Positions 16,583 through 39,957 of a stretch of DNA of 64,000 nt are shown here, in pieces (position 1 is the stretch's first letter; every line of letters begins with the position of its first letter). The DNA is from Escherichia coli (GTDB lineage: Bacteria > Pseudomonadota > Gammaproteobacteria > Enterobacterales > Enterobacteriaceae), in the NCBI RefSeq assembly GCF_044647545.1, contig NZ_CP172818.1, one strand, 5' to 3'. The translations under genes were made by a program, and so were the position numbers. The notes below the pieces were generated by a model. The model made no database searches. It had not been told where the DNA came from and was given only the letters and a program-made list of their open reading frames with translations.

Positions 16583-16734
16583 AAAGACCTTCCCTGAACC
16601 TCAAGAGCGGGATTGCGATCCGCAATTGTATCGAAATGTCACAAAAAAGACTTCGCTTTTTATGACGGATTCAGGAAACTGAAAAGTCATTTGAGTGGGC
16701 TAATCTTCGCCGTTACACTCAAAGGCGGCGCGGT

Positions 16735-16764
16735 GGGAACGATATTTCACAGTATCGGTCAAAT
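16735..16764 (+). promoter_or_regulatory. Candidate sigma-E (RpoE) promoter upstream of bepA
   Basis: GGAAC (16736-16740) then about 17 nt then TCAAA, resembling GGAACTT-N16-TCAAA; about 30 nt upstream of the bepA ATG. Confidence 0.4.
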
Positions 16765-16794
16765 GACTATCTTCAGAAATACAGGATAGAGGTT

Positions 16795-18258
16795 ATGTTC
16801 AGGCAGTTGAAAAAAAACCTGGTTGCAACCCTCATTGCTGCTATGACCATTGGTCAGGTAGCCCCGGCGTTTGCCGACAGCGCAGACACCTTGCCGGATA
16901 TGGGAACCTCCGCAGGAAGCACGCTTTCCATTGGTCAGGAAATGCAGATGGGCGACTATTATGTCCGCCAGCTACGCGGCAGCGCGCCGTTAATTAATGA
17001 CCCGCTGTTAACGCAATATATTAATTCGCTGGGTATGCGTCTGGTTTCGCATGCCAATTCGGTTAAGACACCGTTTCATTTCTTTCTGATCAACAACGAC
17101 GAAATTAACGCCTTTGCTTTCTTTGGCGGCAACGTGGTGCTGCACTCTGCCCTGTTCCGTTATTCCGATAACGAAAGTCAACTGGCTTCAGTTATGGCGC
17201 ACGAAATCTCCCACGTCACCCAACGTCACCTGGCGCGAGCGATGGAAGATCAACAGCGCAGCGCGCCGCTGACCTGGGTCGGCGCGTTAGGTTCTATTTT
17301 ACTGGCGATGGCCAGTCCGCAGGCGGGGATGGCAGCGCTGACCGGTACACTGGCGGGAACGCGCCAGGGGATGATCAGTTTCACCCAGCAAAATGAACAG
17401 GAAGCGGATCGCATTGGTATTCAGGTGCTGCAACGCTCAGGATTCGATCCGCAGGCGATGCCGACCTTCCTCGAAAAATTGCTCGATCAGGCGCGTTACT
17501 CCTCGCGTCCGCCGGAAATTTTATTGACTCACCCGTTGCCGGAAAGTCGTCTGGCAGATGCCCGCAACCGTGCTAATCAGATGCGCCCGATGGTGGTGCA
17601 GTCGTCGGAGGATTTCTATCTGGCGAAAGCGCGCACACTGGGGATGTATAATTCCGGACGTAATCAGCTCACCAGTGATTTGCTGGATGAATGGGCGAAA
17701 GGAAACGTTCGTCAGCAACGAGCGGCGCAATATGGTCGTGCTCTACAGGCGATGGAAGCCAATAAATACGATGAGGCGCGTAAAACGCTGCAACCGTTAC
17801 TGGCGGCAGAACCTGGTAACGCATGGTATCTCGATCTGGCTACCGATATCGATCTTGGGCAAAACAAAGCCAATGAGGCAATCAATCGCCTGAAAAATGC
17901 CCGTGATTTGCGTACCAATCCGGTGTTGCAGCTCAACCTGGCGAACGCTTATCTGCAAGGCGGTCAACCACAAGAAGCGGCCAATATTCTGAATCGCTAC
18001 ACTTTTAATAATAAAGATGACAGCAACGGCTGGGATTTACTGGCACAGGCGGAAGCCGCGCTAAATAACCGCGATCAGGAACTGGCTGCGCGAGCAGAAG
18101 GTTATGCGCTCGCCGGGCGACTCGATCAGGCCATTTCCTTGTTGAGTAGCGCCAGTTCGCAGGTGAAATTAGGCAGCCTGCAACAAGCGCGTTACGATGC
18201 GCGCATCGACCAGTTGCGCCAGCTGCAGGAACGCTTTAAGCCTTATACCAAGATGTAA
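16795..18258 (+). CDS. bepA: Periplasmic M48 zinc metalloprotease/chaperone with TPR domain (outer-membrane protein biogenesis quality control)
   Basis: 487 aa; signal peptide; [10 protein letters not shown] zinc motif; TPR-like C-terminus. Confidence 0.92.
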
Positions 18259-18278: not shown

Positions 18279-18638
18279 ATGACCAAACAGGTAAAAATCT
18301 ACCATAACCCACGCTGTTCAAAGAGCCGGGAAACGCTGAGCCTGCTGAAAGAAAACGGCGTGGAGCCAGAAGTGGTGCTCTACCTTGAGACACCCGCCGA
18401 TGCGGCAACGCTGCGTGATTTGCTGAAAATGCTGGGAATGAATAGCGCTCGTGAATTGATGCGCCAGAAAGAGGATCTTTATAAAGAACTGAACCTGGCT
18501 GACAGTTCGCTTAGCGAAGGGGCGCTGATTCAGGCAATGGTGGATAATCCAAAGCTAATGGAGCGCCCGATTGTGGTCGCGAATGGCAAAGCGCGGATTG
18601 GTCGTCCACCGGAGCTGGTACTGGAAATCGTGGGTTAA
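18279..18638 (+). CDS. yfgD: ArsC-family reductase-like protein
   Basis: 119 aa; N-terminal HNPRCSKSRETL Cys motif of ArsC/Spx family. Confidence 0.88.
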   Translation: MTKQVKIYHNPRCSKSRETLSLLKENGVEPEVVLYLETPADAATLRDLLKMLGMNSARELMRQKEDLYKELNLADSSLSEGALIQAMVDNPKLMERPIVVANGKARIGRPPELVLEIVG

Positions 18639-38147: not shown

Positions 38148-39326
38148 TTAACGTGTAATAGAGTACACGGTTCCGTCTTTTGCCTGGATCAGCAGTTTGC
38201 CGTCAGCGGCAACCGGTTCAGTCTGGAAACCGGAACTATCAACTTTTTGCTGGGCAACGAAACGACCATCTTCGACGTTAATCCAGTGCAGATAACCTTC
38301 ACTGTCACCTACCACCAGGTTGCCATTATACAGCACCGGAGAAGTCAGCAGGCGATGCAGCAGATCGCTTTGTGTCCACAGCGTAACGCCGCCATCAATG
38401 GTCAACGCCATCACCCGGTCATTTTGATCGACCAGATAGATGCGATTGCCGTCGACGATGAAATCATTCACCGAACCCAGTTCGCGTTTCCACATAATCT
38501 GACCACTGCGCAGATCAAGCGCCGTCAGGTTACCATTATAGGCCAGCGCGAAAACAACGCCGTTAACAACGACGGGTGTCGTGTCAACATCGCTCAGACG
38601 GTCAATTTCGGTAGAACCGGTCGCCTGGGAAATACGCTGCTGCCAAATCATCTGGCCCTGTTCCATCAGCACTGCGCTGACGCGACCATTATCGCCACCC
38701 ACGACGGCCGCACCAAAAGCCGTTGCCGGCGCAGACTCGCCACGCAAAGAGAGCGAAGGCATATCGAGGTTAACTGTCCATTTGACAGCGCCGTCAGCTT
38801 CGTTCAGCGCTTGTAACTGACCGTTACTGGTGTGGATTAACACCAGACCGTCGCTGACCACCGGACGCGAAAGTGCTTCACCCGCGACTTTAGTTTGCCA
38901 TGCCACAGTACCATCGCTGGTATTCAGCGCGTAAACCTGCGCCTTTTCGCTGCCAATGTAGACATGCCCACCAGACACGGTCACACCGCCAGAAAGTAAT
39001 GCAGGCTCTTTAGAGAACCAGCCATCTTTCTCGGCCAGGCTGACAGACCAGATTTCTTTGCCATCATCCGCATTCAGCGCTTTTACTAAACCAGCGCGGT
39101 CCGCTGCATAGACAACGTTGTCCGCCAGTGCCGGATGAAGATTGGAATAGAAGTTGCCAATGCCGCTACCAACGGAAGTGCTCCACGCAGTAGTCGGCGT
39201 AAACTGGTTTTCAACGGTTGGCAATGGGGACATCTTTACCACATCTTCTTCGCTGTTAAACAGCGAACAGCCGCTTAAAAGGGTAACGGAAAGCAGTCCT
39301 GGCAGCAGTAATTTACGCAATTGCAT
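38148..39326 (-). CDS. bamB: Outer-membrane protein assembly factor BamB (lipoprotein, beta-propeller)
   Basis: 392 aa; lipobox LLSGCS; repeated PQQ-like blades. Confidence 0.94.
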   Translation of the reverse strand: MQLRKLLLPGLLSVTLLSGCSLFNSEEDVVKMSPLPTVENQFTPTTAWSTSVGSGIGNFYSNLHPALADNVVYAADRAGLVKALNADDGKEIWSVSLAEKDGWFSKEPALLSGGVTVSGGHVYIGSEKAQVYALNTSDGTVAWQTKVAGEALSRPVVSDGLVLIHTSNGQLQALNEADGAVKWTVNLDMPSLSLRGESAPATAFGAAVVGGDNGRVSAVLMEQGQMIWQQRISQATGSTEIDRLSDVDTTPVVVNGVVFALAYNGNLTALDLRSGQIMWKRELGSVNDFIVDGNRIYLVDQNDRVMALTIDGGVTLWTQSDLLHRLLTSPVLYNGNLVVGDSEGYLHWINVEDGRFVAQQKVDSSGFQTEPVAADGKLLIQAKDGTVYSITR

Positions 39327-39336
39327 CGGGTCCCTC

Positions 39337-39957
39337 TCAGATGGACAAATTATTAATTTTCATCTGCATCATTTCGCTCAGTGCCGGGGTAACATCGCTT
39401 TTCACGCCTGCTTCCCATGCACTACGCGCACCTTGCTTATCACCTTTGCTCAGCAATGCTTCGCCACGCAGGTCGGCAACAATGGCAGCCCACCCTTCAC
39501 CTTTGATGGTATCGAGGGTCTTCAGCGCGGCATCAGCCTGCTTGAGCTGTACCTGAACGCGGGCAAGACGCAGATTTATCACGGCTTTGAGATTTTCATC
39601 GCTCGTGTCCGCCAATCCCTGTTGTAACTGGGTGGCAGCTTTCTCTAGTTCATTTTTGTCAACAAATTGCTGCGCAAGTTCCAAAGAAGCCAGCGCACCA
39701 TAGGTATTTTTATTTTCAGCAGCAAATTTTTCCGCCGCCGGGATGCTATCCGGTTTGCCTTCGCTCACTGCGGTAACCGCATTTTGATAGGCAAGAGAAG
39801 CGGAGCGTGCAGAATCAACCTGATGGCTATTCCAGTAGCGCCAGCCAATCAGTGCGCCAACGCCCAAAATCACCCCAACAGCCAGTGCTTTGCCATTTTC
39901 AGCAAAAAAGCGTTTAACCGCTTCAACCTGGTCGTTTTCGTTCTCGTAAATTTCCAC
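39337..39957 (-). CDS. yfgM: Inner-membrane anchored TPR-like protein YfgM (ancillary SecYEG/PpiD partner)
   Basis: 206 aa; single N-terminal TM helix then helical repeats. Confidence 0.88.
   Translation of the reverse strand: MEIYENENDQVEAVKRFFAENGKALAVGVILGVGALIGWRYWNSHQVDSARSASLAYQNAVTAVSEGKPDSIPAAEKFAAENKNTYGALASLELAQQFVDKNELEKAATQLQQGLADTSDENLKAVINLRLARVQVQLKQADAALKTLDTIKGEGWAAIVADLRGEALLSKGDKQGARSAWEAGVKSDVTPALSEMMQMKINNLSI

Follow-up and report, generated by a model that had tools for sequence, protein, structure and literature searches.

A very probable sigma-E-dependent promoter of the bepA-yfgD operon in Escherichia coli and its conservation across Enterobacteriaceae

Sigma-E promoters were reported to contain the -35 element GGAACTTTT and the -10 element (T/C)GGTCAAAA, with the spacing counted from GGAACTT to TCAAA, and the spacer between them was reported to be 15-19 nt long with 16 nt strongly preferred, followed by a discriminator of 5/6 nt, a distance of 26/27 nt from the -35 element to +1 and a preference for a purine start (Rhodius 2006, PMC1312014). 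The genes yfgC (bepA) and yfgD were reported to be induced 2.4-fold and 1.5-fold, respectively, on rpoE overexpression, and both were flagged as earlier reported by Rhodius 2006 (Bury-Moné 2009, PMC2731931). By tagRNA-seq, 22 sigma-E start sites known from databases were re-mapped as genuine transcription start sites, PbepA being one of them; its initiation frequency was found to be increased after sigma-E induction, and bepA-yfgD was termed a sigma-E-dependent bicistronic operon (Lacoux 2020, PMC7075262). The gene yfgC has been described in the literature as 'a gene regulated by sigma-E', and BepA has been placed in the sigma-E regulon. The sigma-E signalling pathway and the role of BepA at the BAM complex and LptD are established and summarised in the literature; in this known biology, sigma-E raises the level of BepA, by which LptD and further outer-membrane proteins that have stalled at BAM are rescued or removed. 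The work that settled the bepA/sigma-E biology was done in E. coli K-12 from 2006 to 2020.

The sigma-24 region SigE_54 (2613790-2614190) was found to span the bepA intergenic space in the supplement of Cho 2014 (PMC3923258). The sigma-24 regions of that study were imported from RegulonDB, its own sigma-24 ChIP having failed, and SigE_54 was therefore rejected as ChIP evidence and counted as a database listing, one that is not a nucleotide-level start site and has an uncertain genome-version offset. No yfgC entry was present in a small portion of the Salmonella sigma-E ChIP-seq supplement.

The window analysed here is a 64-kb stretch of the E. coli chromosome. Of 5426 complete E. coli genomes, 5425 were found to contain the 1-kb stretch around the motif, many of them at 100% identity. 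The gene order in the RefSeq annotation was hyfR-focB-yfgO / bepA-yfgD / hda-uraA, with yfgO on the minus strand, and the genes of the operon were located as follows.

16795-18258, plus strand: bepA (yfgC) coding sequence, 487 aa, M48 metalloprotease with a TPR domain, annotated as bepA in RefSeq.
18279-18638, plus strand: yfgD, the downstream partner of bepA in the bicistronic operon, ArsC-family reductase-like, annotated as an arsC-family gene in RefSeq.

The identity of BepA was given by the NCBIfam equivalog NF052400.1, which scored 742.6 bits against a cutoff of 570 and covered residues 1-483. The gap of 20 nt between bepA and yfgD was found to be without a promoter-like site, and an Rfam search of the yfgO-bepA intergenic region returned no match.

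E. coli K-12 MG1655 was found to carry exactly the same sigma-E promoter sequence. Between the start of yfgO and the ATG of bepA, a single base differed from MG1655, position 16773 being T in the window and C in K-12; this base lies in the leader, at about +5 as counted from the predicted start. Owing to this near-identity of the intergenic region, the K-12 literature applies directly to the window. The feature is, with a probability of about 95%, the promoter from which sigma-E (RpoE, sigma-24) drives the E. coli bepA(yfgC)-yfgD operon. The motif, its optimal geometry, its conservation and the identity with K-12 come from the present analysis, and the sigma-E dependence and the mapped start come from the literature; the bepA sigma-E promoter is an already known and ordinary feature.

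The sequence at 16735-16764 on the plus strand reads GGGAACGATATTTCACAGTATCGGTCAAAT. GGAAC was found at 16736-16740, followed by the presence of TCAAA at 16759-16763, both on the plus strand, and TCAAA ends 31 nt before the bepA ATG at 16795. The original prediction had placed a sigma-E-like motif just 5′ of the bepA start, which was borne out by both pentamers, by their strand and by their distance to the ATG. It had also counted 17 nt between GGAAC and TCAAA, and here the count had to be corrected: the gap is 18 nt, which equals a 16-nt spacer in the GGAACTT-to-TCAAA convention and so is closer to the consensus than the original figure of 17 nt. The elements of the promoter and of its leader were placed as follows.

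16736-16742, plus strand: sigma-E -35 element GGAACGA (consensus GGAACTT), 5/7 matches including the GAAC core.
16743-16758, plus strand: spacer of 16 nt, its length kept and its sequence not, its final GG also being part of the extended -10 element.
16756-16763, plus strand: sigma-E extended -10 element CGGTCAAA, with the core TCAAA at 16759-16763, fitting the published (T/C)GGTCAAAA.
16769-16770, plus strand: predicted sigma-E start, A16769 (5-nt discriminator) or T16770 (6-nt discriminator).
16769-16794, plus strand: 5′ UTR of about 26 nt with the ribosome-binding region ACAGGATAGAGG (16781-16792), read from the sequence with a predicted start.

The nucleotides CGGTCAAAT at 16756-16764 were found to contain 8/9 matches to the published -10 motif, and the 3′ half of the -35 element was off consensus, with GA instead of TT. 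The region 16706-16735 was found to be G+C-rich, with about 37% A+T, and thus did not contain an A/T-rich UP element; this does not exclude membership in the sigma-E class, since the feature is frequent but optional. The spacer was also found to contain a palindrome, CGATA...TATCG, at 16740-16744 and 16753-16757 with the arms 8 nt apart. It was partly kept as CGAT...ATCG in Enterobacter and was absent elsewhere, and is likely to be due to chance or to be a by-product of the half-symmetry of GAAC and GGTC.

The exact pattern occurred once in the 64-kb window against an expectation of 0.19, and at least one match was found in 18 of 100 shuffles, whereas the variable-spacing pattern was expected 0.72 times per window. 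By consensus count, the bepA site scored 12/14 and was tied with one other site, about 1.4 such sites being expected. The motif content alone is not beyond chance in 64 kb. These figures agree with the reading that the two pentamers came together by chance and have no promoter function, bepA being transcribed solely from another promoter. Since such statistics fail to set the site apart from a chance match, they were not used as support, and the site was judged to be real from its position, its orientation, its conservation across genera and the literature.

The other 12/14 site, the sole one in the window, was found at 39655-39682 on the minus strand, inside yfgM. It contained GGAACTT, a spacer of 16 nt and ACAAA, without the key T of TCAAA, and lay about 330 nt upstream of bamB (38148-39326, minus strand). 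The window also contains yfgM-bamB-der, which was reported to be a sigma-E-induced operon (PMC2731931), and a predicted sigma-E promoter for yfgL/bamB was mentioned by Rhodius 2006 (PMC1312014). The region upstream of yfgM was inspected by eye and no sigma-E motif was seen there.

For the conservation of the promoter, one genome per species was scanned, which gave 80 Enterobacteriaceae loci with a BepA identity of 84-99%, from Escherichia, Citrobacter, Enterobacter, Klebsiella, Raoultella, Kosakonia, Kluyvera, Buttiauxella, Cedecea and other genera. GAAC...TC was found at the position of the bepA site in 78 of 81 sequences (the 80 loci and the window). The spacing was exactly 16 in 74 of the 78 motif-bearing loci, with a spacer sequence that was largely unrelated between genera. 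Per-base counts were made on 59 distinct sequences anchored on GAAC/TC, and G-2 was kept in 49/59, G-1 in 56/59 and the three A nucleotides of TCAAA in 49-55/59, followed by the presence of a purine 6 nt past TCAAA in 53/59. As a control for the anchoring, 77 distinct Enterobacteriaceae upstream regions were aligned with MAFFT without an anchor. The frequency of the majority base was at least 0.9 on GAAC (16737-16740), 0.2-0.7 across the spacer and 0.8-0.99 on GGTCAAA (16757-16763), so that the peaks coincided with both elements.

This pattern is the footprint that would be expected for a two-block promoter of fixed geometry. Both elements, the 16-nt spacing and the purine at +1 were kept across genera while the spacer drifted, and on this ground a chance origin of the motif appears to be effectively refuted; the published sigma-E dependence and the mapped sigma-E-responsive start of PbepA also stand against it, and we consider it scarcely credible. 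The claim that the candidate is an RpoE promoter is accordingly supported by its architecture, by the conservation across genera and by the K-12 literature, and the footprint backs bepA as a conserved member of the sigma-E regulon in Enterobacteriaceae.

The motif was absent from three of the 80 related loci, namely Enterobacteriaceae bacterium UBA7338 (L042), Kosakonia arachidis (L053) and Escherichia sp. ESNIH1 (L057). The upstream region of UBA7338 and ESNIH1 (about 75 nt 5′ of bepA) was found to be different and shorter, and was also without the TACACT block that is described below. Degenerate elements were found in Kosakonia arachidis and in some Kosakonia-like loci, the -10 element being the degenerate one in a few of the latter. 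The comparison of these loci suggests that the promoter may have been lost or replaced in a few lineages.

The consensus scan also found the pair TTCACA-16-TATCTT (16746-16773, plus strand), with 9/12 matches, and on this basis the promoter activity of the region could be due to sigma-70 (or sigma-S), acting at TTCACA (16746-16751) and TATCTT (16768-16773), and not to sigma-E. This would agree with a sigma-70 ChIP-chip peak over the intergenic region (PMC3923258), but one such match is about the level of the shuffles (0.6 expected), TTCACA lies inside the non-conserved spacer and is missing from most other genera, and the peak is better explained by the upstream TACACT block or by the divergent yfgO promoter. 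The pair was rejected for its lack of conservation and its chance frequency, and a promoter of this kind in place of the sigma-E promoter is very unlikely.

Upstream of the sigma-E promoter, the following neighbouring feature was found.

16691-16719, plus strand: candidate sigma-70-type promoter TTGAGT-N17-TACACT, with a predicted start at about 16726; a neighbour of the sigma-E promoter and not part of it.

The nucleotides TTGAGT and TACACT were located at 16691-16696 and 16714-16719, respectively, 17 nt separating TACACT from the downstream GAAC core of the sigma-E promoter. Of 76 distinct upstream regions, 66 had kept TACACT or TAAACT, that is TA(C/A)ACT, which lay 17-19 nt before GAAC in 54 of the 76; the block was also visible in the unanchored MAFFT profile. 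In E. coli, it was preceded by TTGAGT 17 nt further upstream. The two hexamers contained 8/12 matches, which is under the threshold of the scan, and were therefore missed by it. Sigma-70 and RNA polymerase ChIP-chip signal was reported over the bepA intergenic region in unstressed cells (Cho 2014, PMC3923258). Judged from its sequence, the block looks like a sigma-70 promoter, in agreement with these ChIP-chip peaks. The literature searched gave no mapped start and no description of such an upstream promoter. The region was also found to contain a perfect 8-bp inverted repeat, TTTGAGTG (16690-16697) and CACTCAAA (16716-16723), with its arms 18 nt apart, which overlaps the putative sigma-70 -35 and -10 elements and was found in the Escherichia loci only and not in other genera; it is probably incidental.

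These observations bear on a reading that complements the main one and does not exclude it, namely that the sigma-E site is genuine but secondary, with most bepA transcription coming from the upstream sigma-70-type promoter and sigma-E giving a boost under stress. The conservation of TA(C/A)ACT, the sigma-70 and RNA polymerase signal in unstressed cells and the merely 2.4-fold sigma-E induction of yfgC (PMC2731931) are in favour of it, whereas the upstream promoter has no mapped start in the literature found, its hexamers are sub-threshold and the ChIP peak could be that of yfgO. We hold the odds on this reading to be evenly balanced. A conserved tandem pair, a sigma-70-type promoter followed by the sigma-E promoter, is tentatively proposed to drive bepA across Enterobacteriaceae, at odds slightly short of even. 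The sigma-E -35 element would follow about 10 nt after the predicted sigma-70-type start, so that transcripts from the sigma-70-type promoter may read through the stress promoter. If true, the tandem pair would account for basal BepA levels as well as for the modest fold-induction by sigma-E. The modest 2.4-fold induction probably reflects the half-consensus -35 element, the missing UP element and the probable separate housekeeping promoter upstream.

With regard to the sigma-E promoter itself, the exact +1 nucleotide was predicted from the published discriminator and -35 to +1 distances. A16769 lies 26 nt from the -35 element, inside the 25-28 nt expected for sigma-E starts, and a purine was found at the equivalent position in 53 of the 59 distinct orthologous sequences. 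The start was calibrated with the 5′ ends of micA and rybB, for which the sRNA sequences were matched to E. coli genomes at 100%; both promoters were found to contain an N16 spacer, followed by a discriminator of 6 nt and a G at +1. The degP and fkpA starts proposed by Lacoux 2020 lie 2-4 nt after TCTGA (PMC7075262) and, being that paper's own re-predictions, were rejected for the calibration. Neither the promoter sequence nor the candidate start coordinates gave anything relevant when searched for in full-text literature. The leader block ACAGGA..GAGGTTATG was found to be nearly invariant among orthologues, and the conserved ribosome-binding region of the leader can also be written as ACAGGA..GAGG.

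The sigma-E-dependent promoter would act in the following way. When unassembled outer-membrane proteins or LPS intermediates build up, the anti-sigma factor RseA would be destroyed by the DegS/RseP cascade, and the freed sigma-E would bind core RNA polymerase. Region 4 of sigma-E would read the -35 nucleotides GGAAC (16736-16740), followed by the reading and melting of the -10 nucleotides GGTCAAA (16757-16763) by region 2, 16 nt downstream of the -35 heptamer. Transcription would start about 6 nt past TCAAA, at A16769 or T16770, and give a bepA-yfgD mRNA with a leader of about 26 nt. The additional BepA, a periplasmic protease/chaperone, would act at the BAM complex on stalled beta-barrel proteins, LptD among them, by maturing or degrading them, and the role in outer-membrane protein quality control that had been assigned to BepA at the outset agrees with the literature. 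A tool-free reading of the raw sequence thus located a real and published envelope-stress promoter, and its spacing was corrected to the optimal class; the importance of the result beyond annotation is small.

Compared with the bepAp/yfgCp sigma-24 promoter of K-12 MG1655 (Rhodius 2006; RegulonDB/EcoCyc), the window was found to contain the same promoter, gene order and operon, and the only difference was the leader SNP at 16773, T here and C in K-12. The promoters of micA (TGAACTC-N16-TCTGA-N6-G), rybB (AGAACTT-N16-TCTTA-N6-G), degP (GGAACTT-N16-TCTGA), fkpA (GAAACTA-N16-TCTGA) and bepA have in common a GAAC-type -35 element and a spacer of 16 nt, followed by the presence of a TC-initiated -10 pentamer and a discriminator of 5-6 nt, which for bepA is a predicted one. 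The -10 element of bepA, with the consensus TCAAA and the GG extension, is better than those of micA, rybB, degP and fkpA, whereas the 3′ half of its -35 element, with GA and not TT, is weaker than in the canonical sigma-E promoters, and the A/T-rich upstream region of micA and fkpA is absent from bepA.
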